A stretch of DNA of 64,000 nucleotides from an uncultured Chloroflexia bacterium (GTDB taxonomy: Bacteria > Chloroflexota > Limnocylindria > Limnocylindrales > CSP1-4), in the NCBI GenBank assembly GCA_963752475.1, contig CAVVYR010000008.1:574110-638109 (forward strand). The letters run 5' to 3'. Under the pieces are notes generated by a model, which saw nothing but the letters and a program-made list of their open reading frames with translations, was not told where the DNA came from and ran no database searches. Every line of letters begins with the position of its first letter. The stretch's first letter is position 1. This document shows positions 2,198 through 19,006 of this stretch, piece after piece. A program made the position numbers and the translations under genes.

Positions 2198-2270
2198 GCG
2201 GGCCGGGTCCGCCAGTGGCTTGACGCGGTCCAGGCGGCCATGGCTGGGGCCGCGCGTCATCGCCTCCCGC
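2198..2270 (-). ncRNA. c-di-GMP-II-like riboswitch variant (copy 1)
   Basis: Minus strand GCGGGAGGCGATGAC...TGGCCGCCTG...AAGCCACTGGCGGACCCGGCCCGC just upstream of the SD; GCGGG/CCCGC closing stem. Confidence 0.65.
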
Positions 2271-2323
2271 TAACTACGATTCTCTCTCGCGCGTCCATCA
2301 AGGCCGCCTGAGCAGCGTCCGAA

Positions 2324-2369
2324 ATCGCCATGTATAACGGGTCTCGGTCTGATCGTTGCCGCCATGGCG
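2324..2369 (+). repeat. C site
   Basis: ATCGCCATGTATAACGGGTCTCGGTCTGATCGTTGCCGCCATGGCG (divergent copy). Confidence 0.85.
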
Positions 2370-2592
2370 CAGGCAGCCGAGGTGACGATGGGCTAGTCCA
2401 TGGGGTCAGGCTCGGTGGTGACCGGAACCGGAGCCTCTGGGAACGCCAGCATGTCGCCCTCGAAGACGTAGCCCTCATAGGAGACATCGGTCGGGCTTGG
2501 CATCCGCACCCCCGGTCCCCAGGGCACGGCGTGCAATCCCTCGTAGGCACCTTCGCCGGTCAACTCGTAGAAGCTGTACTTGCCGTGGGAGC

Positions 2593-3768
2593 TAGTGCCT
2601 CATGCCGCAATGGCGGGGAGCGAATGATGGACCTCGGCCTTGATGCGCCAGGGCTTGGCTGGGCGGCAGTTCCGGTTGTGCCAGCGGAGGTAGGCATGGA
2701 TGGCCGCACCCTGCTCGTCGTGGCTGGCGTGGTCGCTGCCGTTGAGCGCGAAGCGCCGGAGGGCCTGGAACTGGCACTCGATGAGGTTGAGCCAGCTCGC
2801 GTAGGTGGGCAGGTACACGAGTTCGATGTCGTGCGCGTCGGCCCACTCGCGGAGCTCCTTCTTGAGATGCGGGCTGAAGTTGTCGAGCACCACGATGAGG
2901 TGCTCGTCGAAGCGGGCCCGCAGCGAGCGCAGCAGCTCGCGCACCTCGCGCCAGGTCTTGGTCGCCCGGATGTGGCCGTAGAGCTTGCCGCTCGCGGGAT
3001 CGTAGGCCGCGAGCAGCTGGCGCACGCCCGCGGTGCGCGTGTAGGTGGCCCGGAGGCGGGCCGGGTGCTTGCTCGGATGCCAGCCCGCTCCGAGGCGTGG
3101 CTGCAGGTTCAAGGGGCCGAACTCGTCGAGGCAGAGCACCCGGCTGCCCGCGGGCGGATGGGCGTAGAGGTCGAGCACGCGGTTCTTCTTGGCCTCGAAG
3201 TCCGGATCGGGCGAGGCCTTCGGGGTCTTGTGGTGCAGGAAGCGGATGCCATGCTCACGCAGGATGCGCCGGAGCTGGCTCCCGCTGATGGTCGGCACCA
3301 CTCGCGTCCGGAGCAGGTGGTCGCGCAGCTTGGTCAGACTCCAGTCGGTGAAGGGCTCACCGAGGTCTCGGGGACGGGCGAGAGCCACCTTCACGATGGC
3401 CGCGCGCTGGGCCTCATCGATCCGGCGTGGTCGGCCCCCGCCCTTCCGAGGGTCCAGGGCCGCGAAGCCCCGCTCGTCGAAGGCGTGGATGAGTTCGGCC
3501 ACGTGCGTCGCGCTGGCGCGGTGCAGCCGCGCGATCTCGGGCACGCTCTGGCCCTGGAACGAGGCGAAGAGGAGCATCGCCCGGTGCTGCGTGGTCGGGT
3601 TCGTACTGCGACGAGCGAGCCTGAGCAGGTGCATCGCCTCCCCATCGCTGAGCTCACGGATGAACAACTCGGGCCGGCGGGCCATCTGCACCTCCCTGCG
3701 ACGACGGGCCGAGGGTCGACCCTTGCGACAGTGCGATTACCTACCGGACATTATGAATCGAGGCACTA
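2593..3768 (-). mobile_element. IS630-family insertion sequence
   Basis: TA duplication (2593-94 and 3767-68) in a CTAG context; imperfect TIRs GTGCCTC...AATG / CATT...GAGGCAC. Confidence 0.9.
2600..3691 (-). CDS. IS630-family DDE transposase
   Basis: N-terminal HTH, GGGRPRRI, LCLDEFGP, VVLDNFSPH, LPTYASWLNLIE. Confidence 0.95.
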   Translation of the reverse strand: MQMARRPELFIRELSDGEAMHLLRLARRSTNPTTQHRAMLLFASFQGQSVPEIARLHRASATHVAELIHAFDERGFAALDPRKGGGRPRRIDEAQRAAIVKVALARPRDLGEPFTDWSLTKLRDHLLRTRVVPTISGSQLRRILREHGIRFLHHKTPKASPDPDFEAKKNRVLDLYAHPPAGSRVLCLDEFGPLNLQPRLGAGWHPSKHPARLRATYTRTAGVRQLLAAYDPASGKLYGHIRATKTWREVRELLRSLRARFDEHLIVVLDNFSPHLKKELREWADAHDIELVYLPTYASWLNLIECQFQALRRFALNGSDHASHDEQGAAIHAYLRWHNRNCRPAKPWRIKAEVHHSLPAIAA

Positions 3769-4194
3769 GCGATCAATCGCCCGGTGCCACTCCAACTCCC
3801 GACCTCATCCACCAACAGATGGTTGGTCGCGATGGTGGTCCATCCCCACTCGTCGGCAGGATGGGACACCGACTGGTGGTCCAGGGTGAACCAGTGCTCG
3901 GCGGGGAGTCGTGGGTCGCTCCACTCGACTCGCTGCTCGATGAGGTCCACCCGGCCGCCGCTGGTCACCTCGTAGTCCCCCACGATGGTCGGCGGGTCTG
4001 GCTCGATGTCCTCCCAGTCCCGTGCTTCGGTGTGCACCGTCATGTCCCATGGGAACCCGGTCACGAAGGTGATGGGGCCAGGTCCCTCTGACTGCGCAGC
4101 CGCCGTGATGAGCAGGCTGGCGAGCAGGACAAGAGCGGATGCCCCCGCCAGTACTGTCCGCAATGTACGCATCTCGCACCTCCTGGGTGCATGC

Positions 4195-4269
4195 GCGGGC
4201 CGGGTTCGCCAGTGGCTCGGCGCGACTCAGGCGGCCAACGTACGCGAGTCGGACTTCACGGCCTCCCGC
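4195..4269 (-). ncRNA. c-di-GMP-II-like riboswitch variant (copy 2)
   Basis: Same leader; inner stem CGACTC/GAGTCG is compensatory relative to other copies. Confidence 0.7.
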
Positions 4270-4310
4270 TACCGATGATTCTCTCGCGAGCGTCCATCGG
4301 CAATCCCGAA

Positions 4311-4355
4311 ATCGCCATGAATAGCGGGTTTGGTCTGGTCGTCGCCGCCATGGCA
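4311..4355 (+). repeat. C site
   Basis: ATCGCCATGAATAGCGGGTTTGGTCTGGTCGTCGCCGCCATGGCA. Confidence 0.9.
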
Positions 4356-4381
4356 CAGGCAACCGAGGCGGCCAGAAAGGG

Positions 4382-5263
4382 TTACTCGGCGGGCTTGGCC
4401 TCCGTCGTCCCGTCAACATCCGTCAGCGTGGCGCTCTCCACAACCGCAGGCTCGTCCGATGCGTTTCGGATCACATAGACCGTGTCGCCCGCGAATGAAC
4501 CCGACGTGAGAATGTCGGCATCGGGCGCGATGAACCTGACCGAGTCGGTCAGCGCCCCGTCGACCTCGGATGGGGCAGCGAAGCCGCTCTCCAAGCGACC
4601 CTCTTCAAGCGCCAGGAGGCGCAGCACCCCGGCTTCGTCAGAGTCAAGCACCAGCTGGCCGCCGGGATCGAACGTGATTCGTTCGAGGATGACCGCGACC
4701 GGGGCACTGATCAGCTCGGTCAGGGTCTCCTCGGCCGGGAAGTCCCAGACCAGCAACTGGTAGTCAGCACCCGGAGCAGGCTCCCTCGGTGTCTGCGGCT
4801 CAATGCTGTTGGCGATGCCCACGATGAACGATACGTACGGTTCCGTACCGTCGATCACCCACGAGCCCGAAGCCGCGCCGTCGTAGTACAGCACCACGTC
4901 ACCAGCACCGAGGGCGATGGTGGCCATCGGGTCCGGAGCTCCATCGGAGCCGTCCTCACCCCAGAGGTGTGCCCGCGTGTCCTTCACGACCTGCGCGCTC
5001 CCTTGCTCCACGTACTCGACGTAGGTGTAGCCCGCTGGTTCCTCCGACCCTTCCTCAGCGCTGCTGCTCGGCTCGACCATGACACGCGCGAACCACGTGT
5101 GATCGACATCCGGGGGTATGGCTTCCACAGGGATGACACCGCGGTCGCTCAGGACATCGACGTCGACGCCGGACGTACCTCCTTCTGCCGCGACCGCAGG
5201 CCCGAGACTGAGAACCAGCATCGTGAGAGCGGTGCCCGCGAGGCACTGACGTACGGTACGCAT
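4382..5263 (-). CDS. Secreted protein, probable tandem cupin-like domains (cassette 3)
   Basis: Signal peptide MRTVRQCLAG...; two beta-rich repeats (YVEQGS...LGAGD, ALEEGRL...IRNASDEPA); ends KPAE*. Confidence 0.75.
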   Translation of the reverse strand: MRTVRQCLAGTALTMLVLSLGPAVAAEGGTSGVDVDVLSDRGVIPVEAIPPDVDHTWFARVMVEPSSSAEEGSEEPAGYTYVEYVEQGSAQVVKDTRAHLWGEDGSDGAPDPMATIALGAGDVVLYYDGAASGSWVIDGTEPYVSFIVGIANSIEPQTPREPAPGADYQLLVWDFPAEETLTELISAPVAVILERITFDPGGQLVLDSDEAGVLRLLALEEGRLESGFAAPSEVDGALTDSVRFIAPDADILTSGSFAGDTVYVIRNASDEPAVVESATLTDVDGTTEAKPAE

Positions 5264-5280
5264 GGATCCCCCTTTCCAGC

Positions 5281-5353
5281 GCGGGCCGGGTTCGCCAGTG
5301 GCTCGGCGCGGCTCAGGCGGCCATGGTGTGGGCCGTGCGTCGTCGCCTCCCGC
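5281..5353 (-). ncRNA. c-di-GMP-II-like riboswitch variant (copy 3)
   Basis: Full leader copy upstream of SD AAGGGGG and ATG 5263. Confidence 0.7.
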
Positions 5354-5393
5354 TCAGTTGATTCTCTCGCGGGCGTCCAACGGTTCGCACGAA

Positions 5394-5438
5394 GTCGCCA
5401 TGAATAGCGGGTTATGTCTGGTCGTCGCCGCCATGGCG
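5394..5438 (+). repeat. C site
   Basis: GTCGCCATGAATAGCGGGTTATGTCTGGTCGTCGCCGCCATGGCG. Confidence 0.9.
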
Positions 5439-5474
5439 CCCGTGCGTCCGGCAGCCGAAGGCGGTGCGAGGGGG

Positions 5475-6026
5475 TTACTCGGCAGGCGGCAAGACCCACT
5501 CTGGTGGCTCGGGCCAAGCGCCGGGGATGATGACCCCCTCGACCTCCCAACCACCGGGAGCCGGACGCTGGATTAGCATGGCCGAGAGGCCCTCGTACCC
5601 ATGCTCACCGGTGAAGTAGTTCACGTAGTGGCTGACTCCGGTGCCCGGCGTGAAGCCCTGACCCGCCATGGTCCAGGAACCGCCGTCGTTCGTCAGGCGT
5701 CCGATGAGCGTGCGCACCGTGGCCCCGGAGCCGTAGACGTCATAGTTGGAGTTCGCCTCCAACTCTCCGCTCAACCGCGGGTCGTCGGTCTCCAGGCTCA
5801 ACGTCCAGCCGTAGTTCCGCGTGGACGCGACCATCGGCTGCGGCGAAGTCTCGGTCTGGGCGGACTGGTTCGGGGCGACGGCGCGGATGGTGCCGGTGAC
5901 GACGGCGGGCGCGAGAACATCGGCTTCCGAAGCCGGGTCAGCATCCCGCGCCACGCCGGTGACGCTCGACGGTCCGAGCAGCGCCAGGGCGACGGTCCCC
6001 ACCAAGGACAACCGCAACGTACGCAT
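5475..6026 (-). CDS. Secreted WSDPRL family protein (cassette 4)
   Basis: ATG 6026 MRTLRLSLVG after SD GGGGGA; ETDDPRLSG, GEHGYEGLSA, VEGVIIPG; ends PPAE*. Confidence 0.85.
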   Translation of the reverse strand: MRTLRLSLVGTVALALLGPSSVTGVARDADPASEADVLAPAVVTGTIRAVAPNQSAQTETSPQPMVASTRNYGWTLSLETDDPRLSGELEANSNYDVYGSGATVRTLIGRLTNDGGSWTMAGQGFTPGTGVSHYVNYFTGEHGYEGLSAMLIQRPAPGGWEVEGVIIPGAWPEPPEWVLPPAE

Positions 6027-6044
6027 GACATCCCCCGTTCGTGT

Positions 6045-6117
6045 GCGGGCCGGGTTCGCCAGTGGCTCGGCGCGGTCCAAGGCGGCCATTGCTGGACCGC
6101 GCTTCGAAGCCTCCCGC
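6045..6117 (-). ncRNA. c-di-GMP-II-like riboswitch variant (copy 4)
   Basis: Perfect 10-bp inner stem GCGCGGTCCA/TGGACCGCGC. Confidence 0.7.
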
Positions 6118-6167
6118 TATGTAGATTCTCTCGCCGACGTCCATCGGCTCCTCGGCCGTGCTCCAGA

Positions 6168-6212
6168 ATCGCCATGCATAGCGGGTCATGCCTGGTGGTC
6201 GCCGCCATGGCG
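6168..6212 (+). repeat. C site
   Basis: ATCGCCATGCATAGCGGGTCATGCCTGGTGGTCGCCGCCATGGCG. Confidence 0.85.
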
Positions 6213-6238
6213 CAGGCAGCTGGGGTGGGGGAATGGGG

Positions 6239-6838
6239 TCAGCCGAAGAAGACCGCGTCGATCAGCGCGAGCAGTGCGAACAGGGCGACGGGCAGCACCA
6301 CGATTCCCAGCGCGATCAGGATCAGGAGTTCTCGGTCCGGGCGGCGAATCCCCTTGCTGCGGCGTCGGATGATGCTCCCGACCCTGTCGCCGAAGGCGGC
6401 GCCGATCGAGACCGTCACGAGCGCAGCGACGATGCCGTCGGGGATGTCGTCCTCGGGAAAGCCGAGTCGGCCACCGATACCGGTACTGAGGGCGAATCCG
6501 ACGAGGGCTGCCGCCGCCATGGCGCCGATGAGACCGACCACACCGAGGCGTCGTCGTGGGGACGGCGAGTGCCCGATGATTCCCGCCGGGACGACCGCGA
6601 TGAGGATGCAGGCTGCCCAGAGGGTGATGGTCTCAGCAGACAGACCCCGGTAGCACCCCCAGCACTCCGGGTCGTCGTATCCGGGTTCGTAGAACTCCTG
6701 GATCATGTCCACCCACGCCGCTCCGAGCACGAGGCCGAGGACGAGGCAGAGTGCCGCTGCTACCGCGATGGCCGCGATGATTCGCCCGACGCCCGCAATC
6801 GGATCGACGCTGGTCCCACCCACGGGACGAGGTGCCAT
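6239..6838 (-). CDS. Multi-pass membrane protein (cassette 5)
   Basis: ATG 6838 with SD GGAGGGG; about 5 hydrophobic segments; CWGC in the first loop. Confidence 0.7.
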   Translation of the reverse strand: MAPRPVGGTSVDPIAGVGRIIAAIAVAAALCLVLGLVLGAAWVDMIQEFYEPGYDDPECWGCYRGLSAETITLWAACILIAVVPAGIIGHSPSPRRRLGVVGLIGAMAAAALVGFALSTGIGGRLGFPEDDIPDGIVAALVTVSIGAAFGDRVGSIIRRRSKGIRRPDRELLILIALGIVVLPVALFALLALIDAVFFG

Positions 6839-6981
6839 GTCTGTCGCCCCTCCATCCACCGATCCGCCAATCCCGATCGTCGCCGGTGTCAGCGTCGGGT
6901 CAAGCAAGGTGCAGCCGTGCTACGTCTCGTAGCCTCCCGCTACCTACAATTCTCTCGCGGGCGTCCATCAGCCGACCCTGA

Positions 6982-7026
6982 ATCGCCATGAATAGCGGGT
7001 TTGGTCTGGTCATCTCCGCCATGGCG
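6982..7026 (+). repeat. C site
   Basis: ATCGCCATGAATAGCGGGTTTGGTCTGGTCATCTCCGCCATGGCG; only the 5' part of the leader (6914-6970) accompanies it. Confidence 0.85.
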
Positions 7027-7209
7027 GTTGACCGCGCTTCGATACTTAGGCACAGAAACGGGGGCACCCGGGGCGATGAGACGCTTCCTGTCCCGACGGC
7101 CAGATCCAGAGCGTCGCTTCGTCGAGCTCCTCGAGCGCGCTCGCGTGATGACGGATCCTTCATGGCGCGACCACGCCACGTCCGACGAGCAGCTCGCGAT
7201 CAGGGCGCA

Positions 7210-7824
7210 CTAGCCGCCCAGCTGGTACCTGCCCCGCTCCAGCTCCTGGACGTCGGGGCAGAAGTCGCCGCCCTCCTGCCCTTCGGTGGAGGCGATGCCC
7301 ACGAAGTACAGATCGTCCGGGTCGCCCACCAGCTTGCGATCGACGGTCAGCGTCAGGATCGTTCCCTCGACCTCGACGTCGACGACGCCCCAGAACACCG
7401 GGTCGCCCTCGGTCAGCGTCGCGTCGAACAGCGGGGCACCGGACACGGCCTCCTGCTCGAGCGTGGCTCCATGGACGACGAGGACGTGGGTGATGTCATC
7501 GGGGAAGACCGCCGCCGGATCGGCCGACAGGCCGACCCACAGCTCATCCGTCGACATCGTCTCGACGTCATACGAGAGCGGTGGCTCCGCGGCGAACTCG
7601 AAGGTGAAGCTGACGAGGGATTGCCAGGGTTCAGCGATGCTGCAGGACAAGAAGTCGGGCCCTGCGCCGCCAGGGACGTCGCCGACGGGGTCCTCGTAAA
7701 CCGCCAGCGGGACGATCGGCGCGTCGGTCGGCTCCGGCTCGACCTCGGCGGCAGCCACCCCGGTCGCGCTCGCCAGCACGAGCGCAGCGGCGGCCGTCAG
7801 GATCCTCGATATCAGGGTCATCAT
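7210..7824 (-). CDS. Secreted acidic beta-rich protein (cassette 6)
   Basis: Signal peptide ...GVAAA; EDPVGDVPGG motif; two Cys. Confidence 0.8.
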   Translation of the reverse strand: MMTLISRILTAAAALVLASATGVAAAEVEPEPTDAPIVPLAVYEDPVGDVPGGAGPDFLSCSIAEPWQSLVSFTFEFAAEPPLSYDVETMSTDELWVGLSADPAAVFPDDITHVLVVHGATLEQEAVSGAPLFDATLTEGDPVFWGVVDVEVEGTILTLTVDRKLVGDPDDLYFVGIASTEGQEGGDFCPDVQELERGRYQLGG

Positions 7825-7838
7825 CCCCTCCTGTCACG

Positions 7839-7905
7839 TTCCGCAAGTGGCGTGGCGCGGTCTGGGGCGACCGTGGTCGACGGGCCGTGCGTCATCGCCT
7901 CCCGC
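7839..7905 (-). ncRNA. Degenerate copy of the riboswitch-like leader
   Basis: 5' half intact (GCGGGAGGCGATGACGCACGGCCC); 3' closing strand lost. Confidence 0.45.
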
Positions 7906-7956
7906 TACACCCAATTCTCTCGCGGGCGTCCATCAACCACCCTTGAACAGCACGGA

Positions 7957-8001
7957 ATCGCCATGAATAGCGGGTTTGGTCTGGTCGTCGCCGCCATGAC
8001 G
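7957..8001 (+). repeat. C site
   Basis: ATCGCCATGAATAGCGGGTTTGGTCTGGTCGTCGCCGCCATGACG. Confidence 0.9.
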
Positions 8002-8027
8002 CAGGCAGCCGAGGCGGCGCGCTGGGA

Positions 8028-8933
8028 CTACTGCTCCGGGTGAAGCTGGTAGTTGAGGAAGGCCTCGGTCAGCTCCCAGGTTGCCTGCTCCTGGAGGATC
8101 TGATCTTCGCCATGCCCGGTCGGCAACTCGGCGTAGACGTATTCGATGCCTGCGGCTCCGAGTGCATCAGCGAGGTTGCGAGATGCCTCGATGGACACCA
8201 CGCCGTCTAGGTTGCCATGGAGGACGAGCATGGGAACGGTGTCCTCATCGACGTGGAACATGGGCGAAGCCTCCTGAGCGATGGTCGGGTCGGCCTCGAT
8301 CTCAGCGACCGGGATCGCCTCGTGCCAGGCGTCCCGGAGCCACTCCGGCTCGGGGATGGTCAGGTCTACGTTGCCAGCAGTCGTGATGACGCACTGCACC
8401 CGGCTGGAGATGCCGGCCAGCTCTGGATCGGAGTCATCGACGGTGTCGAGGACGCCAAGCATGGCCGCGAGGTGTCCGCCGGATGAGTCGCCGACCGCGC
8501 AGACGCGGTCCGGGTCGACGTTGTACTCGTCCGCGTGGGCACGAACCCAGCGGACCACTCGTTGTGCGTCATGGAGCTGTGCCGGCCAGCGCACCTCGCC
8601 CGTGGCCTGGTCGAGCAGCCGATAGCCGGCGAGGAAGGTGACGTACGGCTCGCCGAACCCACTTCCAGCAGCCATGTCGCCGAACGGTGCCGCTCGTTCG
8701 GGCGTGATACCGACCTCGAGTGCGCCGCCGTGGAAGAAGATGAGCGCCGGGCGCGGCGCCTCGCGGGGTTCCGGCTGGTAGATGTGCGTGTACTGGCGCA
8801 GCGGATCCTCCCCGTACACGACGAACTCCTCGACCTTGGGCCAGGTGTCGTCCTGTGCGACGACAGCACCTCCCACGCCTGCGAGCAGCGCGAGGATTGC
8901 CGTCCCGACAAGACACAGCCTCAACGTACGCAT
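8028..8933 (-). CDS. Secreted alpha/beta hydrolase, HSL-family esterase (cassette 7)
   Basis: HGGA oxyanion motif, GDSSGGHLA nucleophile elbow, HGNLD, TGHG; signal peptide MRTLRLCLVG. Confidence 0.9.
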   Translation of the reverse strand: MRTLRLCLVGTAILALLAGVGGAVVAQDDTWPKVEEFVVYGEDPLRQYTHIYQPEPREAPRPALIFFHGGALEVGITPERAAPFGDMAAGSGFGEPYVTFLAGYRLLDQATGEVRWPAQLHDAQRVVRWVRAHADEYNVDPDRVCAVGDSSGGHLAAMLGVLDTVDDSDPELAGISSRVQCVITTAGNVDLTIPEPEWLRDAWHEAIPVAEIEADPTIAQEASPMFHVDEDTVPMLVLHGNLDGVVSIEASRNLADALGAAGIEYVYAELPTGHGEDQILQEQATWELTEAFLNYQLHPEQ

Positions 8934-8950
8934 GCCATCTCCCTTCGTCA

Positions 8951-9022
8951 GCGGGCCGGGTTCGCCAGTCGCTGGGCGTGGCCTTGCGACCAGTGCTGGG
9001 ACTGCGCGTCAGAGCCTCCCGC
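8951..9022 (-). ncRNA. c-di-GMP-II-like riboswitch variant (copy 5, diverged)
   Basis: Both ends conserved (GCGGGAGGC...ACTGGCGAACCCGGCCCGC); inner stem diverged. Confidence 0.55.
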
Positions 9023-9073
9023 TACGATCGGTTCTCGCGCGAGTGTCTATACGCTCCTCTGAGCGCTACCGGA

Positions 9074-9118
9074 ATCGCCATGTATAGCGGGTTTGGTCTG
9101 ATCGTCGCCGCCATGGCG
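9074..9118 (+). repeat. C site
   Basis: ATCGCCATGTATAGCGGGTTTGGTCTGATCGTCGCCGCCATGGCG. Confidence 0.9.
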
Positions 9119-11581: not shown

Positions 11582-12133
11582 TTACTCGGCGGCGTCCGGC
11601 TCCGGGACCTCCGGCACCTCGCTCGGGAAGATGACGCCCTCGAGGCTCAAAGCGGAAGGTTGCAGCACATTGCCCGTTTCGAGGACAACCATCGCACTGA
11701 GTCCCTCATAGCCATCGCGGCCAGTGGGCGCCACCCATCGCACGGAACGTGGATCCCCGCGCAGATCGGTGAGGTAGCCATTGCCTTCACCCAGCCAACT
11801 GCCGCCGTCGTTGGTCAGCTCGTATGTGTGCGAGTCGATGGCGGTGTCGGAGCCGCCGTCCCAGTGCCAGGTGACGGTGCGCGTCACGGTGCCATTCAGA
11901 CGAGGGTCACTCGTGCTCCAGACGCCGGCGACCGCTCCGGTGTTGATCGCGCCTCCCATATCGAGGATGACGAAGTCCCCGCCTACCTCCCGGCGTTCCC
12001 CTCTCATCAAGGCGCTCCCGGTCACCTCAGCAGCCTCCATGTTCGGCTCGTCCTGTGCCGCGACTCCGACCACCGAGCCGGCGAACAGGCCGAGCGCGAG
12101 GATGGAGATGGTGGTGGTCCTGATCGCCCGCAT
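11582..12133 (-). CDS. Secreted WSDPRL family protein (cassette 10)
   Basis: MRAIRTTTISILAL...; WSTSDPRLNG, GRDGYEGLSA, LEGVIFP; ends DAAE*. Confidence 0.85.
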   Translation of the reverse strand: MRAIRTTTISILALGLFAGSVVGVAAQDEPNMEAAEVTGSALMRGERREVGGDFVILDMGGAINTGAVAGVWSTSDPRLNGTVTRTVTWHWDGGSDTAIDSHTYELTNDGGSWLGEGNGYLTDLRGDPRSVRWVAPTGRDGYEGLSAMVVLETGNVLQPSALSLEGVIFPSEVPEVPEPDAAE

Positions 12134-12265
12134 GGGCAGTCTCCCTGCCCCCCGTGGTGGACGCGTCAAACCAAGCCCCCTCGCGTCCTCACCACATAGA
12201 GGTCGCCAGACCCTCCAAGCGTTCCATCTTCTTGCGCCGCGGGCAGCCGAGGCGGCGCGATGGGG

Positions 12266-12799
12266 TTACTCGGCGAGCGGCACGGGCACTTCGGGCGCCG
12301 GTGGCGGTTCACCCTCGAAGATGACACCGTCGAACACGGTCTGGCCCTCCTCGACGACATGGGCCACGACACTCCAGCCGTCGTACGCACCCTCGCCTCG
12401 GAGCACACTGGTCACCGGCCAGGGGCGCTGGCGCCCGCTCGCGCGATACCAGGTGTTCGGCTCTTCCTGCCACGCTCCCTCGTCGTTCTCGACCCGCATC
12501 GTCCCGTTCCAGAGGTTGAACCCCCCGGGGTCCGAGTGCTGGTCCCGGTTCGCGGCCCACGTGTACGTGCCCGAGAAGCGCGGGTCGCTGGACTCGATGA
12601 CGACGCCCGTCTCGATGACACCTCGGTACTCGACCAAGTCGTCGCCGAAGACGAACGTTCCCGGCTCGACGACCGTGTCGACGGTGGCCCTGGCCTGGAA
12701 CTCGGTGACTGTCGGCTCCTCGGCTGTGGTCACTCCCGTTCCGACGACCGCCAGCATGAGCACAGACACCGCAGCCGCGAACGGCCTGATGGCGCGCAT
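12266..12799 (-). CDS. Secreted WSDPRL family protein (cassette 11)
   Basis: MRAIRPFAAAV...; ESSDPRFSG, GEGAYDGW, FDGVIFEG; ends PLAE*. Confidence 0.85.
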   Translation of the reverse strand: MRAIRPFAAAVSVLMLAVVGTGVTTAEEPTVTEFQARATVDTVVEPGTFVFGDDLVEYRGVIETGVVIESSDPRFSGTYTWAANRDQHSDPGGFNLWNGTMRVENDEGAWQEEPNTWYRASGRQRPWPVTSVLRGEGAYDGWSVVAHVVEEGQTVFDGVIFEGEPPPAPEVPVPLAE

Positions 12800-12815
12800 G
12801 ACATCCTCCTCATCC

Positions 12816-12889
12816 GCGGGCCGGGTTCGCCAGTGGCTCGGCGCGGTCCAGGCGGCCCTGGTGGTAGGCCGTGCGTCGCAGCCTCCCGC
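12816..12889 (-). ncRNA. c-di-GMP-II-like riboswitch variant (copy 6)
   Basis: Full leader copy upstream of SD GAGGAGG. Confidence 0.7.
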
Positions 12890-12945
12890 TAGGTCCATTG
12901 TCTCGCGGGTGTCCATGGGCAGGCAGCCGAGGCGGCGCGATGGGC

Positions 12946-13851
12946 TTACTGGAGGAGCTCCATCACGGTCTCGATCGTGAGGTCGCCCGGCGTGATGTGG
13001 CCACCGGCGAACTCCACCAGCTCGACGTCGTACCCGGCTTCGGCGAGCACGGCCTCGAACGCGGCTGAGTTCTCCGGCGATACTGTCGAGTCATCCTCCC
13101 CGTGGACCAGCCGTACCCGCAGCTCAGGATGCACCCCGACCGCGCCGTAGAGCATCTCCCACAGCTCGGGTTCATGCTCCATCAGGAGGTCGCGGCCGTA
13201 CCTGCCCTCGTAGCCCACGAAGGCGTCGTAGGCGCCCGCGACGCCCATGAAGCCATCGACACGGGTCGAGGCGTCGCTGGCCGTGCACTCGAACTGGGAT
13301 GGCGGACCACCTGCGGACTCGGCGTACTCGTCCCACACGCGGTCGAAGTCCTCTCCGACGAGCGCGACATGTGCCGGCGGTCCGCCATCCAGCGACCACC
13401 CGGTCAACACCAGCGGCGCCGTCTCGCTGCCGTACTCCGAGCCACGGGCGAAGCGCACGGCGCAGGCCACGGCCTCCACGGCCGCGCGGACGACCGTCGG
13501 GTCCGCATGGAGCACGACCTCCGACCACTGGAGCGGGGGCGAGCCGGTCACGAAGACGGACACACCCTGCTCGGCCAGTGCCTTCGAATTCACCGCCGAC
13601 CCGCCTACGCTGACGACCATGGGTGCATCCTCGCTCTCGGCAGTGACGTGGACACGGAGCTTCAGCTCGGTCCCCTCACCATCCGGTGAACTTCCCGTGG
13701 CGTAGACGAGGTCCTTGATGACCGAGACCTCGGCCGGAGAGTCCGATGTCGCACCAGCTGACTCGTCGCCGTCGGTCTGGGCAGCCACGCCGAGCGGCAG
13801 CATGGCCACCGCCACGGCCACCCCCGCCAACACTGCTCGCGGCGTTCGCAT
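12946..13851 (-). CDS. Secreted alpha/beta hydrolase (cassette 12)
   Basis: GWSLDG elbow, HGEDD, GGH; signal peptide MRTPRAVLAG. Confidence 0.85.
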   Translation of the reverse strand: MRTPRAVLAGVAVAVAMLPLGVAAQTDGDESAGATSDSPAEVSVIKDLVYATGSSPDGEGTELKLRVHVTAESEDAPMVVSVGGSAVNSKALAEQGVSVFVTGSPPLQWSEVVLHADPTVVRAAVEAVACAVRFARGSEYGSETAPLVLTGWSLDGGPPAHVALVGEDFDRVWDEYAESAGGPPSQFECTASDASTRVDGFMGVAGAYDAFVGYEGRYGRDLLMEHEPELWEMLYGAVGVHPELRVRLVHGEDDSTVSPENSAAFEAVLAEAGYDVELVEFAGGHITPGDLTIETVMELLQ

Positions 13852-13869
13852 GACACTCCCCCTTCATGT

Positions 13870-13944
13870 GCGGGCCGGGTTCGCCAGTGGCTCAGCGTGG
13901 TCCAGGCGGCCAACGTCGAGGAGCCGCGCGTCAGCGCCTCCCGC
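13870..13944 (-). ncRNA. c-di-GMP-II-like riboswitch variant (copy 7)
   Basis: Full leader copy. Confidence 0.7.
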
Positions 13945-13996
13945 TACTGATGATTCTCTCGCGTGCGTCCACCGGCTCGATGGGCACTCGTCCAGA

Positions 13997-14041
13997 ATCG
14001 CCATGAATAGCGGGTTATGTCTGGTGGTCGTCACCATGGCC
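13997..14041 (+). repeat. C site
   Basis: ATCGCCATGAATAGCGGGTTATGTCTGGTGGTCGTCACCATGGCC. Confidence 0.85.
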
Positions 14042-14123
14042 AATCACGCCGCCGGGCCGTCCGGCCCTTGACCCGCTGAGCGGGGCGCGGAGGATAGGGT
14101 CGCGAGCCAGGAGGGGGAACGTG

Positions 14124-15383
14124 ATGTCCAAGCGAGGCGGGGCCTTGGCGCCGACGCTGCCGCGGATTCTGCTGGCGCTCCTGGCCATGCCCCTGGCGCT
14201 CGCGGCGAGCGCGGGCGCGCCCCACGCCGCCGCTGAGCCCGTGGATGCGATGCCTACGATCACGCTTGTCGAGCAGCGTGTAATCAGAATCGCGGACAGT
14301 CAGTTGCTCTCGCTGTCGCCTGACGGTGGCTCGATCGTCGTCACCCGACCAGCTGGGCCGATGCCAACCGAGCTCTGTATCCACGAGGTGGCGACGCTCG
14401 CCGTGCGCATCTGCGCGGACGTCAGTGACCTCGATGCGGGCCTCTGGCCCGACAGCGTGGTCTGGTCACCCGACAGTGCGTGGCTGGCCTTCGCCGAGCT
14501 GTGGCCCATGTTCTTGGTCGATGGCGACCTGTGGCTCATGGACGCCTCCACTGGTGCGCTCGGCAACTTGCTCGACGATGGCTTCAGCGGCGCCCTGGGG
14601 GAAGCGGCTGCAGGCGAACTCACCTGGAAGGGCGTCATCACGCTGCCGATGTACCCGACGTTCACGCCTGACAGCGCCGCGGTGACGTTCTCGCGGACCA
14701 CGGTCCAGGCCGGCGAGTTCAGCGGTGTTGGGGACATCGCAACGCTCCCCATCACCGGTGGCGATGCGGTCACGCTGGGCGGTTCCGAACGCGAGGAGTT
14801 GGTCGGCGAGTATCGCACCATGCAGTGGGCAGCAGACGGATCCGCCCTCTATGTCTCCCTCGTCGACCAGCAGGCTTCAAGGCTCGGACCTGACAGCGGG
14901 ATCTGGGTGTTCGAGGCTGATGGAAGGCACGCCCGCCAACTCCTGAGCATCACTGGCCGCGACGACTGGCCGACGCGCATCTTGGCGGTGTCCCCGCGTG
15001 GGGAGCGCCTCCTCGTATCGGACCCGAGGGCGGCCGCGGGCGGCGCCCCGCTATGTGCTTGCTCGGTGGTCGATGGCTCGACCGGAGCCGCGGAGCCCAT
15101 CGAGCCGCTGGGATCGGAAGCCCGCCAGTCCACGCCCATCACCGGGGCGATGCTCTCGCCGGATGGGTCGCTGGTGATCACGGTCTCAGGCCATCTCGAG
15201 AAGCAGGTGGCCGTCCGGGAGGTGGCAACGTCGAACGAGACGGTCCTGCTACGGGAGCCGTCTGGGACCGCCCCATCGGACCTCGCGGGCGAGGTCCTGA
15301 CCTGGGCCCAGGACGACACGGTGCTGGTCGATGGAGCCAGACGCGGCCGCGGTACGCTGATCGTCCTCGACCGGGGAAGCTAG
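14124..15383 (+). CDS. Secreted TolB/WD40-like beta-propeller protein (cassette 13, inverted orientation)
   Basis: Repeated SPDG/WSPDS/FTPDS/WAADG blades; signal peptide; SD AGGAGGGGG. Confidence 0.85.
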   Translation: MSKRGGALAPTLPRILLALLAMPLALAASAGAPHAAAEPVDAMPTITLVEQRVIRIADSQLLSLSPDGGSIVVTRPAGPMPTELCIHEVATLAVRICADVSDLDAGLWPDSVVWSPDSAWLAFAELWPMFLVDGDLWLMDASTGALGNLLDDGFSGALGEAAAGELTWKGVITLPMYPTFTPDSAAVTFSRTTVQAGEFSGVGDIATLPITGGDAVTLGGSEREELVGEYRTMQWAADGSALYVSLVDQQASRLGPDSGIWVFEADGRHARQLLSITGRDDWPTRILAVSPRGERLLVSDPRAAAGGAPLCACSVVDGSTGAAEPIEPLGSEARQSTPITGAMLSPDGSLVITVSGHLEKQVAVREVATSNETVLLREPSGTAPSDLAGEVLTWAQDDTVLVDGARRGRGTLIVLDRGS

Positions 15384-15477
15384 GGCAGAGCCTGGCAGCG
15401 ACGTCGTCGGGGCCAAGCCTGCGACAAGCCGTGCGGCTGCCAAGAGGCGTCAAGCTCCGCCTAGACGGTCGTGTGGG

Positions 15478-15522
15478 ATCGCCATGAATAGCGGGTTTGG
15501 TTTGGTCGTCGCCGCCATGGCG
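15478..15522 (+). repeat. C site
   Basis: ATCGCCATGAATAGCGGGTTTGGTTTGGTCGTCGCCGCCATGGCG. Confidence 0.9.
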
Positions 15523-15551
15523 CAGGCCGCCGAGGCGAAGCGATGGGGCTG

Positions 15552-16751
15552 CTACTCGATGGCCGATGCAGCGTCCGGGGTGATCACGTAGGTCTCGATG
15601 CTGTCCCGGGCCAGGCCGAGCGTCTGGAGCTCGGTCCCATCTTCAAGGGTCACGACGTCCCCATCGGATGTGGATGCGGCCCTGACCCACACGTTGCCAT
15701 CAACGTCGATATCGATCTCCTGGACGCACCGGTCCGTCAGGAAGCGACGCCAGGTCGTGCCATCGAAGCGGCCGAGACCGTCGCAGGAGACCAGGTGCGA
15801 GCACATGACCCCGCAGGGCTGCTCGGTCTTGAAGGACGCCCACAGACTGCCATCCGGCCCCAGCACGCCAGGGTTCCACCACGCGGACGTCGTGCCACCG
15901 ACGGGTAGGGGCACCTCGAGTCGCTGCTTGTCGCCGTTCTCTTTCAAGGAGCGGATGACGATGCTCTCGCCGCCGAGCGCCAGGGTCCGGACTGCACCGT
16001 CGCTTCCGATGACGAAACCGTATCCTGGCAACCCTGCCACGGGCATCCAGCCATCGTCGGTGAGGCGGCTCACGGCCGTCTTCCGGCGCAGCCACAGCGC
16101 ACCGTCCGGGGCCACGTCCCACGACCTGATGTTGTTGGCCTTCGGCTTGTCCGCCGGGTGCTTGGGCAGGCGGGTCCAGGAGTCGCCTTCGAGACGCAGG
16201 AATCGACCGCCGCCCGGGCGATCGGTCTCCCTCAAGGCCCACACGGTGCCATCGGGTTGGAGGCGGAAGTCGAGACCCTCGTACACGTTGCCCGTGCGCT
16301 TGAGCCGCGGCCGCCAAGCGGTACCGTCATGCGAGTAGAGGGTCCAGCGGACGGGCCGGCCTTCCACGGTCCCGTCATGGGCGACGATCCACGGCGTGCC
16401 ATCCGATCCGACCTGGACCGGCCACGGGACGTTCTCCCGCGTCCGCCCGTCCGGGTAGGGAAGCTCCTGCTCTGCACCCAACTCGAGGAGATCCCGGTCC
16501 CCCATGAGCCACACGCTGCCATCAAGGCCGATGGCCAACTCATCGTTCAGGCCGCTCCTCCCGATCGATCCCGCAAGCTCTCGAACACCGCCCCCAAGGA
16601 CCCGTAGGACACCCGGTTCGACCTCCTCGGTCACCAGGCCCGCGAGCAGCCCGCCGGTACCGCTCTGGCCGCTGGCCTCTTGCCCCGCTGCGGCAGTGCT
16701 CGAGGTCAGGACCAAGGCAAGCGTCAACGCCGTCGCGATACGTGCACGCAT
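15552..16751 (-). CDS. Secreted beta-propeller repeat protein (cassette 14)
   Basis: MRARIATALTLAL signal; repeated xxDGxxW blades (GLDGSVW, APDGALW, GPDGSLW, FDGTTW). Confidence 0.85.
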   Translation of the reverse strand: MRARIATALTLALVLTSSTAAAGQEASGQSGTGGLLAGLVTEEVEPGVLRVLGGGVRELAGSIGRSGLNDELAIGLDGSVWLMGDRDLLELGAEQELPYPDGRTRENVPWPVQVGSDGTPWIVAHDGTVEGRPVRWTLYSHDGTAWRPRLKRTGNVYEGLDFRLQPDGTVWALRETDRPGGGRFLRLEGDSWTRLPKHPADKPKANNIRSWDVAPDGALWLRRKTAVSRLTDDGWMPVAGLPGYGFVIGSDGAVRTLALGGESIVIRSLKENGDKQRLEVPLPVGGTTSAWWNPGVLGPDGSLWASFKTEQPCGVMCSHLVSCDGLGRFDGTTWRRFLTDRCVQEIDIDVDGNVWVRAASTSDGDVVTLEDGTELQTLGLARDSIETYVITPDAASAIE

Positions 16752-16768
16752 GACGTCCCCTCTTGCAT

Positions 16769-16844
16769 GCGGGCCGGGTTCGCCAGTGGCTCGGCGCGGT
16801 CCAAGGCGGCCAACGTACACAGGCCGCGTCTCGTAGCCTCCCGC
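16769..16844 (-). ncRNA. c-di-GMP-II-like riboswitch variant (copy 8)
   Basis: Full leader copy. Confidence 0.65.
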
Positions 16845-16884
16845 TACCTACGATTCTCTCGTGGGCGTCGACCGCGATCACAGA

Positions 16885-16929
16885 TCCGCCATGAATGGCG
16901 GGTTTGGTCTGGTCGTCGCCGCCATGGCG
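16885..16929 (+). repeat. C site
   Basis: TCCGCCATGAATGGCGGGTTTGGTCTGGTCGTCGCCGCCATGGCG. Confidence 0.9.
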
Positions 16930-17053
16930 CCGGCAGGCGAAGCGGCGCATGGGAACCCCGCCCCCGGTCCTCCACGCCGGGGGCGGGGCCTACAGGGGGG
17001 TGCCTGGTTGACAAGTCCTGAGCGCCGCAGGCAGCCGAATCGGCGCGATGGGG

Positions 17054-17623
17054 TCACTCGGCAGGCGGTCCTGGCAGCGGTGGCAGTCCGCTCTCGATGA
17101 TCCAGCCTTCATACTGCTCGTCCCACGGTCCGTCGGGGTCGTGGTCGGGCGCACCTCGCAGCAGGGCGTGCATGTCCTCGTAGGCCCCGTCACCCTCCAG
17201 AACGTAGTAGCTGTAGTGCCGCTCCGGGTCGGGACCGTAGCCCTGCTTGATGGCCCGCCCGGTGCCATGCCAGCGGCCCTCAGAGCCGTCCAGCAGGACG
17301 TTCATCTCGGTGACCATCACGAAGTAGTCCTCGATGGCCTCCACGTCGACCTCCTCGCCCTCGAGTTCGGGCGGCACGTCACCATAGAGGTACCAGGCAC
17401 CCTCGACCTCGAGCGTCGGCGGCAGGCGCGGGTCGCTCCACTCCACGGTCTGCTCCCACGTGGCGCGGCCCTCGTCCTCGGTCGCGGAGTCATTGGTGTC
17501 ACCGACCGCCGTGCCGGTGACGAAGACGGCGCGGACCGCCTCCTTGTTCATCTGCGCGGCGACCGCGACCGTGGAACCGAAGACCAGCGCCACGGCGACG
17601 GCGACCACCCATGGCGTACGCAT
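17054..17623 (-). CDS. Secreted WSDPRL family protein (cassette 15)
   Basis: MRTPWVVAVA...; VEWSDPRLP, GDGAYEDM, YEGWII; ends PPAE*. Confidence 0.85.
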   Translation of the reverse strand: MRTPWVVAVAVALVFGSTVAVAAQMNKEAVRAVFVTGTAVGDTNDSATEDEGRATWEQTVEWSDPRLPPTLEVEGAWYLYGDVPPELEGEEVDVEAIEDYFVMVTEMNVLLDGSEGRWHGTGRAIKQGYGPDPERHYSYYVLEGDGAYEDMHALLRGAPDHDPDGPWDEQYEGWIIESGLPPLPGPPAE

Positions 17624-17641
17624 GACATCCCCCTTCCTTCT

Positions 17642-17715
17642 GCGGGCCGGGTCCGCCAGTGGCTCGGCGCGGTCCAAGCGGCCATGGTGGTGGGCCGTGC
17701 GTCATCGCCTCCCGC
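17642..17715 (-). ncRNA. c-di-GMP-II-like riboswitch variant (copy 9)
   Basis: GCGGGAGGCGATGACGCACGGCCC...TGGCCGCTTGGACCGCGCCGAGCCACTGGCGGACCCGGCCCGC. Confidence 0.7.
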
Positions 17716-17789
17716 TACGTCAGATTCTCCACCTGGCGGCAATCAAGGTCTCCTGACGAGCCGAAGGCAGCCCCGGCGGCGCGATGGGG

Positions 17790-18914
17790 TCACTCAGGGA
17801 ACGTCTGCATCCCTTCGGTCGTGACCGACTCCGGCTGGGCCGGGAACACCATCGGGTCGGTCTCGAAGATGTAGCCCTCGTACGAGTGGTCGAGTGGTCC
17901 GCTGGCATCTGCACCCGGAGTCATACGCAACACGGCCCAGAGTCCGTCGTAGGCGCCCTCGCCGGTCAGTTCGTAGAGGCTGTAGCGGTGGTCGAGACCC
18001 TCGACCGCTCGACCGGTACCCCGCCAACTTCCCTCAGGGCCTTCCAGCAGGTTGCTGGTCGTGACGGCCATCGCGCCCTCCGGAGGCCCCTGCGCCTCTC
18101 GCGGGTCGAGGATGAAGGCGAGGTTCATGTTCATCCAGTGCTGCGATGGCAGGCGCGGGTCGCTCCATTCGATGACTTGCTCGATGACCCCGTAACTCTC
18201 AGCGCCGACCAACCAGCCCCCCACCTCGTGGGGTGGTCCTTCGACGATGGTGTTCGCCCCCGGGTGGTCGTACTGCTCGACCACGGTCCCGGTGACGAAG
18301 GTGACGGGAGCCGGTTCCTCGTCCTGCTCGGCCAGAGTCGCGGACAGAGGCAGCTCGATGGGGTCAGGCATCGGCGGCACCTCGCTCTCGAAGACGTAGC
18401 CGTCGTAGATGCTCGTGACGTGGCCGTCAGCATCGATGACCGGGTTGCCGCCAGCATCCACCACGAGCGACCCTTCGAGCATCGCCCAGAGACCTTCGTA
18501 CGCACCGCTGCCGGTGAGGACATACAGCCCGACCGACGACTCCGGGTCCACGAGCGAGTACTCCGTCCCGGCCCAGTCACCCTCCTCGCCGACCAGCCGG
18601 ACGGCGACGGCGAATGCTCCGACAGCGCCGTCTTCGAGTTCGTGCCAGTTGGCGTTGGTGTCGTACAAGAACCGCGACGGCAGACGCGGGTCACTCCACT
18701 CGACGGTGCGCTCGGTCAGCACGCCGCGCGAGTAGTGCACGTCACCGTCCTCCCACTCTACGGGTTCCGAAGTCATGGACGTGCTCAGCTGTGTGCCGGT
18801 GACGTGGGTCGCAGACGGCGCTTCGCCATCGTCCTGAGCCGTGACGAGCACGGCCAGACCGCCGACCAAGGCGAGCACGACCATCCCGGACAGGGTATGC
18901 AGCAACGTTCGCAT
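17790..18914 (-). CDS. Secreted protein with two tandem WSDPRL domains (cassette 16)
   Basis: EWSDPRLP, GxGAY(E/D)GLWA and Y(D/E)GY(V/I)FE each occur twice. Confidence 0.9.
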   Translation of the reverse strand: MRTLLHTLSGMVVLALVGGLAVLVTAQDDGEAPSATHVTGTQLSTSMTSEPVEWEDGDVHYSRGVLTERTVEWSDPRLPSRFLYDTNANWHELEDGAVGAFAVAVRLVGEEGDWAGTEYSLVDPESSVGLYVLTGSGAYEGLWAMLEGSLVVDAGGNPVIDADGHVTSIYDGYVFESEVPPMPDPIELPLSATLAEQDEEPAPVTFVTGTVVEQYDHPGANTIVEGPPHEVGGWLVGAESYGVIEQVIEWSDPRLPSQHWMNMNLAFILDPREAQGPPEGAMAVTTSNLLEGPEGSWRGTGRAVEGLDHRYSLYELTGEGAYDGLWAVLRMTPGADASGPLDHSYEGYIFETDPMVFPAQPESVTTEGMQTFPE

Positions 18915-18931
18915 GAGGTCCCCTCGCTTGA

Positions 18932-19006
18932 GCGGGTCGGGTTCGCCAGTGGCTCGGCGCGGTCCGGGCGGCCATGATCGAGGAGTCGCGCTTCATCGCT
19001 TCCCGC
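18932..19006 (-). ncRNA. c-di-GMP-II-like riboswitch variant (copy 10)
   Basis: GCGGGAAGCGATGAAGC...GAGCCACTGGCGAACCCGACCCGC. Confidence 0.7.

Follow-up and report, generated by a model that had tools for sequence, protein, structure and literature searches.

A dense array of variant cyclic di-GMP class II riboswitch aptamers in front of predicted secretory genes in an uncultured Chloroflexota bacterium

Background

The stretch studied here, hereafter the window, comprises 64,000 nucleotides (nt) of contig CAVVYR010000008.1 from an uncultured Chloroflexia bacterium. Over 17 kb of it the minus strand carries ten intact copies of an aptamer with the fold of the class II riboswitch for cyclic di-GMP (c-di-GMP, cyclic dimeric guanosine monophosphate), each placed shortly before the start codon of a gene, as well as three decayed copies. 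Together they form a distinct ligand pocket subtype of a known family, neither a new fold nor a new class. Very probably they are ten functional aptamers, each leading its own short unit of a regulon of secreted proteins, which numbers 31 or more such units here and up to 47 matches in sister genomes. The genome assembly, 88.8% complete and with 68% G+C, spans 38 contigs that total 4.25 Mb.

Aptamer copies and fold

A search with the 24-nt 3' core of the element, in which at most three mismatches were allowed, gave ten matches, all on the minus strand, at 2198, 4195, 5281, 6045, 8951, 12816, 13870, 16769, 17642 and 18932 (the last ending at 18955), against none in 100 shuffles. An earlier note on this DNA had described ten full copies on the minus strand, and every one was recovered where it had been placed. 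Rfam cmscan was then run over the complete window, with gathering cut-offs of 47.9 bits for c-di-GMP-II-GCG (RF03170), 40 bits for c-di-GMP-II-GAG (RF03169) and 53.5 bits for the parent c-di-GMP-II model (RF01786). Nine of the ten copies, numbered here by coordinate, exceed a curated variant cut-off. RF03170 is the best model for six of them (52.5-62.4 bits), namely copy 1 (2192-2276, 62.2 bits), copy 2 (4189-4275, 52.6 bits), copy 3 (5275-5359, 61.1 bits), copy 7 (13864-13950, 62.4 bits), copy 9 (17636-17721, 52.5 bits) and copy 10 (18926-19012, 60.5 bits). For three, RF03169 scores best (47.4-60.7 bits): copy 4 (6039-6123, 60.7 bits, and 52.0 bits on RF01786), copy 6 (12810-12895, 47.4 bits) and copy 8 (16763-16850, 57.2 bits). 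The exception is the most diverged copy, number 5 (8945-9027). Used alone, RF03170 accepts the same nine copies at 49.9-62.4 bits and leaves copy 5 at 42.7, and RF03169 accepts them at 46.0-60.7 bits and leaves it at 35.9; genome-wide, 33 of 35 matches to RF03170 and 34 of 36 to RF03169 lie over the respective cut-offs. No other Rfam family scored over its cut-off within the 64-kb window.

A covariance model, R1, was built from the ten window copies; copy 9 is its best match (103.9 bits) and copy 5 scores 80.7 bits. The R1 alignment contains 90 matches (73 distinct sequences), drawn from the window, other loci of the genome and loci of related genomes, and since it was fitted to R1 it is biased towards the structure. 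In the 73 distinct sequences 94.3% of the cells are paired according to the class II structure including the pseudoknot, against 27-42% in a control in which the partners were slid by one to three columns. Changes on both sides are found in 11 of the 20 pairs, which none of 500 shuffles reached, and comprise all eight pairs of P3 and three of the five of P1. P2 and the four pseudoknot pairs are almost invariant across the alignment, which is consistent with the structure but means that covariation neither supports nor contradicts them. The outer P1 extension of the Rfam models was not counted as structure, as the window copies mostly mismatch there. The architecture is that of clan CL00127, with P1, P2, an internal loop, P3 and a pseudoknot between the P3 loop and the 3' strand, and it is backed by covariation. 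The claim of a shared class II fold in the earlier note agrees with the variant models, the paired fraction and the doubly changed pairs, the covariation lying beyond all shuffles, and its example of compensation, CGACUC/GAGUCG in copy 2 against CGGUCC/GGACCG in copy 4, is present in the alignment.

Ligand pocket subtypes

In structure 3Q3Z of the class II aptamer, A13 forms the floor and A61 the ceiling of the pocket, and the ligand backbone is flanked by the first P2 pair, A14-U60; A69 reads G-alpha, G73 reads G-beta and A70 intercalates between the two bases, no residues other than A69 and G73 being reported to form hydrogen bonds with the two guanines (PMC13715770). A parent consensus derived from aptamers of small genomes of the same phylum that pass RF01786 reads A61-N7-A69-A70-N2-G73 (...GAGcc-A-GUgGUGC-A-A-CC-G...), and its register matches these contacts as given in PMC13715770. 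The Rfam consensus lines are GGCGAGCCCG for GCG and GGCGAGACCG for GAG. The names GCG and GAG would fit the letters at positions 69, 70 and 73, since the two lines differ at position 70 only and both have G69.

All ten window copies read GGCG(A/G)ACCCG (GGCGAACCCG), which in the R1 alignment corresponds to A69-C70-G73. This A-C-G type accounts for 52 of the 73 distinct sequences, and none of the 52 departs from A13, A61, A69, C70 and G73, whereas the P3 stem and its loop vary; 51 of them have G-C as their first P2 pair, like the parent consensus. As judged from the aligned letters, the stacking A70, replaced by C, is the sole reported contact that is altered, A69 and G73 being kept. None of the ten copies has the G69-C70-G73 pocket of RF03170 or the G69-A70-G73 pocket of RF03169, both as deduced from the consensus lines, and C70 likewise sets them apart from RF01786 members (at least 53.5 bits with A69-A70-G73).

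The earlier note had named three changes in the ligand pocket. One of them, GCAACC to GAACCC, does concern the pocket, as it contains the A70 to C contact change. The others do not: UGGG to UGGC affects the pseudoknot on its loop side and covaries with GUG to GCG on the 3' side, and AGU to ACU falls on position 62, which has no reported ligand contact. The resemblance to the GCG variant that it had proposed is seen in the RF03170 scores but not in the pocket letters, where A-C-G departs less from the parent than does G-C-G of the named variant.

Two kinds of aptamer are found in the genus. The amplified kind has the scaffold GCGGGAGGC...UGGCCGCC...GAGCCACUGGCGAACCCGGCCCGC, and its distinct rows comprise 52 A-C-G, four A-A-G, one G-C-G and one A-C-A. 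The single-copy kind has the scaffold GCGGGAAGCG...CGGUCGCC...GGAGC-AGUGGCGAGCCCGGUCCCG and is G-C-G in 13 of 13 cases.

Unit organization and transcription

The layout of the units was determined by alignment of 35 units of the genome and the ten window leaders. Each unit begins with a conserved 20-nt box, TGGACGCCCGCGAGAGAATC, that ends in GAGAAT and, with at most four mismatches, has 34 matches in the genome, 11 of them in the window; a gap of 8-11 nt separates it from the aptamer start, (U)AGCGGG. At the other end a spacer of 6-10 nt leads from CCCGC to the Shine-Dalgarno site (AGGGGGA or GGAGG), and ATG follows after another 5-7 nt. The box lies at 2278-2297 (copy 1), 4277-4296 (copy 2), 5360-5379 (copy 3), 6124-6143 (copy 4), 12896-12915 (copy 6), 13952-13971 (copy 7), 16852-16871 (copy 8) and 19013-19032 (copy 10). 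The last C of CCCGC is 16-23 nt upstream of the start codon, close to the 17-25 nt estimated before, and as measured from the end of the Rfam match all ten copies stand 5-17 nt before a start codon on the same strand; the same is seen genome-wide. The copies therefore have the position of cis-acting leaders.

The 20-nt box may contain a -10 region, given that GAGAAT carries A2 and T6 of the -10 hexamer, and a transcription start about 7 nt downstream of GAGAAT would set the 5' end of the RNA just before P1. Several observations count against such a promoter. A sigma-70 promoter scan found none, with 1.4 expected, and TGGACG stands a mere 7 nt before GAGAAT; for these two reasons the RNA start is no more than predicted. 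In addition, contigs from RNA libraries that match exactly span the putative promoter region, which could be due to read-through transcription or to DNA in the library. These contigs stem from three RNA runs with 6-8% of the sampled words, which over 12700-19100 gave short contigs only, some exact and some derived from other copies or organisms; since they show neither starts nor strand, they are uninformative on transcription starts. A sigma-54 promoter with -24 and -12 elements was considered for TGGACG-N7-GAGAAT and rejected by eye, as the GG-N10-GC spacing does not fit. Within positions 1-19500 the leaders contain no transcription terminators; the five terminator-like sites found, with 4.2 expected, all lie inside genes. 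Matches to boxA (CGCCATGGCGGCGACGA, at most three mismatches) numbered 302, which is too unspecific in a G+C-rich genome, and the count was not used.

A second box, ACCCGCTATTCATGGCGAT, 19 nt long and on the minus strand, is found some 40-60 nt before the GAGAAT box. It occurs 15 times in the genome, 13 of them in the window, at 2324, 4311, 5394, 6168, 6982, 7957, 9074, 10402, 11511, 13997, 15478, 16885 and 19058, and is present in eight of the ten intact and in all three decayed units; at 10402 and 15478 it is followed by neither a riboswitch nor a promoter-like box. A 10-nt palindrome, CGCCATGGCG, usually precedes it by about 10 nt. The box looks like an operator for a DNA-binding protein specific to the cluster, but it may also be part of the duplicated module.

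Three decayed copies, which the earlier note had missed, are interspersed among the intact ones. The copy at 7824-7915 (minus strand; box at 7913-7932) has lost the stretch of positions 68-73, seen as an alignment gap, and scores 44.9 bits on R1 and 26.3 on RF03169. Inspection of the sequence shows that near 6921-6942 (minus strand) only the first 20 nt of an aptamer (UAGCGGGAGGCUACGAGACG) are left behind an intact box at 6948-6967, and that near 11435-11462 (minus strand; box at 11468-11487) the P1/P2 5' strand is fused to the P1 3' strand, with P3, pseudoknot and pocket deleted. In all three, loss of the core is accompanied by visible decay, which together with the invariant pocket residues speaks for selection on the core.

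The repeated sequence is not confined to the aptamer. At the start of the coding sequence ~55 nt (ATGCGTACGTTGCGGCTGTCCCTGGTCGGGACGGTC..., MRTLRLSLVGTV) are conserved at the nucleotide level even where the mature proteins (esterase, barrel family and unknowns) are unrelated, as in the genes starting at 6026, 8933, 13851, 17623 and 18914, among others, and also on contigs C14, C31 and C32 of this genome. Box, riboswitch, Shine-Dalgarno site and the coding start for the signal peptide seem to form a 5' module of ~250 nt that moves or persists as a whole. From this one could argue that the copies sense nothing and are only a 5' module (promoter, leader and the sequence coding for the signal peptide) that gene duplication has spread and that is conserved because the duplications are recent. 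The reach of the repeat past the aptamer would fit, with 13 of the 15 ACCCGCTATTCATGGCGAT boxes in the window, a promoter-like box repeated along with it and a coding start (MRTLRLSL...) common to genes with unrelated mature proteins, as would the fact that 18 of 36 downstream proteins are paralogous. We nevertheless regard a non-sensing module as very improbable, because the divergence is patterned, with P3 stems that compensate, loops that vary in length and sequence and an invariant pocket and pseudoknot; because the copies that lost their core look decayed; and because at least 20 genomes of the genus, as well as a further family of the phylum, have kept the same aptamer type.

Downstream genes

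In the window the genes behind the ten intact copies and behind 7824-7915 all (11 of 11) encode an N-terminus that is basic and then hydrophobic, often MRTLRLSL.G.., and ends near AAAQ; by eye these read as signal peptides. Genome-wide such an N-terminus was found in 31 of 36 downstream products, and for copies of the same type in related genomes in 18 of 25. The exceptions in the genome are two SRPBCC/polyketide-cyclase-like proteins, a methyltransferase and two open frames that were probably wrongly picked or are broken.

With the first 30 residues removed, 18 of the 36 downstream products belong to a single paralogue family, six of them in the window. The family has no Pfam match. A large protein collection contained 46 relatives, all annotated as hypothetical protein and one labelled Chloroflexota, and a search for related loci with a single family protein gave two, both labelled as metagenome-assembled genomes of uncultured Chloroflexia. 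For the protein of 17054-17623 an AlphaFold2 model was made, an eight-stranded barrel with a predicted local distance difference test score (pLDDT) of 81.8. VIA-align related it to soluble eight-stranded barrels with Z-scores of 8.9-10.3, among them the Diels-Alderase Cyc15 (Z 10.3, root-mean-square deviation 3.0 over 111 residues), the DUF3224 protein 2ooj (Z 10.0) and the allene oxide cyclase (AOC) 1z8k (Z 9.4), while Foldseek was marginal (best E-value 1.3e-3) and a language-model atlas returned only Chloroflexota hypotheticals and a weak DUF3224 lead.

All target genes of the window lie on the minus strand, and those behind intact copies or 7824-7915 carry the predicted signal peptide. The barrel family is represented by the genes at 1554-2174 (206 amino acids (aa), no Pfam match; copy 1), 3741-4172 (143 aa, short and probably truncated; copy 2) and 17054-17623 (189 aa, the modelled member; copy 9), by two distant members at 5475-6026 (183 aa; copy 4) and 12266-12799 (177 aa; copy 6), and by a protein with two tandem family domains at 17790-18914 (374 aa; copy 10). 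The remaining targets are a secreted alpha/beta-hydrolase of the BD-FAE esterase type at 8028-8933 (301 aa, Pfam BD-FAE, E 1.5e-37; copy 5), an RTX-repeat protein at 10586-11413 (Pfam HemolysinCabind, E 3.3e-17; decayed copy 11435-11462) and four proteins without a family, at 4382-5263 (293 aa, no known family; copy 3), 7210-7824 (204 aa; decayed copy 7824-7915), 12946-13851 (301 aa, no Pfam match; copy 7) and 15552-16751 (399 aa, no Pfam match; copy 8).

The controlled proteins often end in PPAE, PLAE, KPAE or the like, e.g. those of the genes ending at 5475, 12266, 17054 and 4382. The final residue is E or D in 18 of 34 controlled proteins, compared with 444 of the 3235 long open frames with high G+C at third codon positions (GC3) in the genome, and a terminal P..[AVITP]E is found in 12 of 34 against 37 of 3235; half of the controlled proteins are paralogues, so these counts are not independent. 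The motif may be a mark for processing or sorting. Directly after the short gene at 3741-4172, which stops earlier than its paralogues, lies a 363-aa open frame with coding-like GC3 (2600-3691, minus strand), and the two may represent one broken or rearranged gene. Past the last unit a long open frame on the plus strand (19102-21090) matches the rve_3 integrase core with an E-value of 1.7e-4, which is below the Pfam cut-off; a mobile element may have left it behind at the border of the array.

Distribution in the genome, genus and phylum

A hidden Markov model scan of the complete genome gave 39 matches, i.e. 31 A-C-G, three A-A-G and one G-C-G copy and four degenerate or partial ones. One of the three A-A-G copies, on contig C4 at 69720, scores exactly 53.5 bits on RF01786. 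Matches to RF03170 were found in 34 of 36 other genomes of the genus, 0-47 per genome with at most 60 candidates scored in each, and 11 of these genomes have at least ten. The earlier note had called ten copies in 17 kb exceptional; this is justified for the density, but the array is part of an expansion that extends over the genus.

In the sister family none of 24 genomes (each ~1.1 Mb) contains a match to RF03170. Across 151 genomes of the phylum 35 have a match and 21 one over the cut-off, with at most 27 candidates scored and a tally that includes one sub-threshold match in an unpublished genome, G204, on which no other result depends; outside the genus there are one to eight matches per genome. 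Six loci in another family of the phylum are also of the A-C-G type; G-A-G and G-C-G copies occur in sister genera and another family of the class, and true A-A-G parent copies in small genomes of the phylum.

A copy of the G-C-G type lies on contig C8 of this genome at 571463-571549, 2.6 kb before the start of the window. This single-copy aptamer is kept across the genus (loci L034, L041, L042, L048-L051, L054-L056, L058 and L059) and precedes the gene of a membrane protein of ~97 aa (FDYxSFxVM...RHGLAAELNPIV...GGxSNV), which matches DUF5658 weakly (E 3.2e-4, 21.9 bits, below Pfam's 25.2-bit cut-off) and may be the ancestral, conserved target of the variant.

Ligand

The genome encodes seven GGDEF, three EAL and one DAC domain, the search for dinucleotide synthases having covered GGDEF and DAC domains. 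A cyclic dinucleotide made by the GGDEF enzymes would bind the aptamer, perhaps with an affinity altered by the C in place of A70. Of the candidate ligands c-di-GMP itself comes first, with a somewhat better than even chance, since A69 and G73 are kept, A70 only stacks, and A-A-G and A-C-G copies precede the same gene family, as seen for the copies C4:69720 and C32:15619, which stand before genes of one barrel-family cluster. C70 may then tune the affinity.

Three points weaken the case for c-di-GMP. First, C70 is invariant in 52 of 52 distinct copies, possibly a sign of a changed ligand rather than of tuned affinity. Second, none of the ten window copies reaches the cut-off of the parent model, nine being listed at 34.1-52.0 bits and one unlisted. 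Third, the co-occurrence of enzymes and riboswitch, which speaks for such a ligand, is weak evidence, as only two lineages are compared: GGDEF domains are found in all 36 other genomes of the genus (5-20 each), 34 of which have the riboswitch, while both are absent from all 24 genomes of the sister family.

The first two of these points also favour a pocket with changed specificity, for 3',3'-cyclic GMP-AMP (cGAMP), another cyclic or linear dinucleotide or some other signal, in which case the A-A-G, A-C-G and G-C-G copies of one genome would answer different signals. Constancy of C70 is the more telling as four distinct rows on the same scaffold keep A70 and one has G69, and as 31 A-C-G, three A-A-G and one G-C-G copies exist side by side in this genome. 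Small pocket changes do shift cyclic-dinucleotide selectivity in an engineered class II RNA, in which A9G/U55C changed the dissociation constant for 2',3'-cGAMP from 460 to 139 nM and that for 3',3'-cGAMP from 11.1 to 33.4 nM (PMC13715770). Changed specificity nevertheless appears to us the less probable reading, although with an appreciable chance, because the guanine hydrogen-bonders A69 and G73 are unchanged, A70 only stacks between the bases, and one paralogue family is found behind A-A-G and A-C-G copies alike.

The copies C1:140450-140535 and C6:589516-589602 of this genome lie within ~2-3 kb upstream of GGDEF genes, at C1:143523 and C6:591719, and an EAL gene (C1:149795) is found ~9 kb from the former. 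One of the two copies is A-A-G, the other degenerate (GGAGGAUCCGG). The regulon may be linked to enzymes that make or break its signal.

Expression platform and switch direction

The window copies probably act as translational ON switches. Binding of the ligand would close P1 and lock its C-rich 3' strand, CCCGGCCCGC, inside the aptamer; the locked strand would no longer mask the adjacent G-rich ribosome-binding site, and the freed site would allow more translation. This direction is read from the platforms of relatives. At the A-C-G loci of the other family a hairpin CCCGAUCC/GGAUCGGG was recognized by eye in four of the six loci; its 5' arm, CCCGAUCC, is the pocket and P1 3' strand of those aptamers, and a U-rich tail after the hairpin in the same four loci, also judged by eye, would make it a terminator. 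Only L072 among these four passed the criterion of a terminator scanner; L065, which fails, has a sigma-70-like promoter that ends ~28 nt before the aptamer. In the G-C-G copies of the genus the ribosome-binding site GGAUCGGG(GG) is complementary to CCCGGUCC in 10 of 13, the exceptions including this genome's own copy. A ligand-closed P1 frees expression in both platforms, which is ON logic, and by descent and the remaining CCC/GGG complementarity the same is expected of the window copies. In C. difficile, class II riboswitches act in the ON direction on adhesins and pili (PMC11477304).

The window leaders themselves offer less, and in this respect three results run counter to an ON switch. 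They are without the explicit anti-Shine-Dalgarno helix of the relatives, only CCC/GGG being left. RNAalifold found in 32 aligned leaders no conserved alternative helix beyond part of the aptamer. In folding models the mean unpaired fraction of the Shine-Dalgarno site rose only from 0.40 when free to 0.47 with P1 enforced, the site being more open in 15, less open in 4 and unchanged in 12 of 31 copies. Single-sequence minimum free energy folds of the ten leaders are mutually inconsistent and often miss even the aptamer.

The opposite direction, an OFF switch, would arise if the folded aptamer, ~6-10 nt before the Shine-Dalgarno site, hindered the 30S subunit or stacked on a start-codon hairpin. 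For this one can cite the very short spacer between P1 and the Shine-Dalgarno site, the four of 31 copies in which that site is less open with P1 enforced, and a hairpin after P1 that could pair the AUG, at -12.2 kcal/mol behind copy 2 (4189) and -13.9 kcal/mol behind copy 1 (2192). Such an AUG hairpin is not general, however, and as a common platform it was rejected: compared with shuffles its mean z-score was +0.14, z was below -1 in 5 of 32 leaders and the AUG was paired in 11 of 32. As the related A-C-G and G-C-G copies bear platforms with ON logic, and known class II switches are ON (PMC11477304), we consider an OFF switch unlikely.

Discussion

Among the closest described relatives of the window copies is c-di-GMP-II-GCG (RF03170, clan CL00127), with which they share the fold, the letters of the pseudoknot (loop CGCC/GGCG) and C70. 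They differ from it in position 69, a conserved G in the RF03170 consensus and A in all window copies, and in context, since the G-C-G copies of the genus are single and precede a DUF5658-like membrane protein whereas the window copies precede secreted proteins. From c-di-GMP-II-GAG (RF03169), of the same fold, they differ in both variable pocket letters, A69-C70 against G69-A70. With the parent (RF01786, 3Q3Z) they share the architecture, A13, A61, A69 and G73, the first P2 pair being G-C; A70 is replaced by C, and the pseudoknot letters are changed with compensation. In contrast to the parent, the window copies seem to control translation, with no terminator.

Class II riboswitches of C. difficile likewise control secreted or surface proteins (PMC11477304), but C. 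difficile 630 has four class II copies, against 31 or more in the genome studied here.

Expansions to many cyclic-dinucleotide riboswitch copies per genome are known for GEMM-I (c-di-GMP-I) in Geobacter, where cGAMP-sensing variants exist and a single pocket change splits ligand specificity (work cited in PMC5473149). That case concerns the unrelated class I fold, another phylum and other target genes. To our knowledge, the ligands of the GAG and GCG variants had not been established when these were first described. In the literature searched the two variant names appear in just three papers, each time as items in lists of models, and as far as we found the class II variant aptamers in Rfam are orphans.

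Against this background the array is notable for its density, with ten intact and three decayed units in 17 kb, for the amplification throughout the genus, for its coherent set of unannotated secreted targets and for the coexistence of three pocket types in a single genome. The A-C-G copies, next to parent-type and G-C-G copies on one scaffold, amount to natural single-nucleotide 'mutants' at position 69 or 70, by which the signals of these variants could be worked out. Even if the ligand is c-di-GMP, ten intact copies in 17 kb make this one of the densest riboswitch arrays known to us. A bolder proposal, which we hold to be doubtful, is that A69-C70-G73 is a third natural specificity class and that the amplified A-C-G copies answer a signal other than c-di-GMP; were it true, three pocket types on one scaffold would split the control of the secretome and of a membrane protein among nucleotide signals. 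Overall, the array suggests that an uncultured genus of Chloroflexota controls exported proteins post-transcriptionally in a large regulon whose main target family is unannotated.

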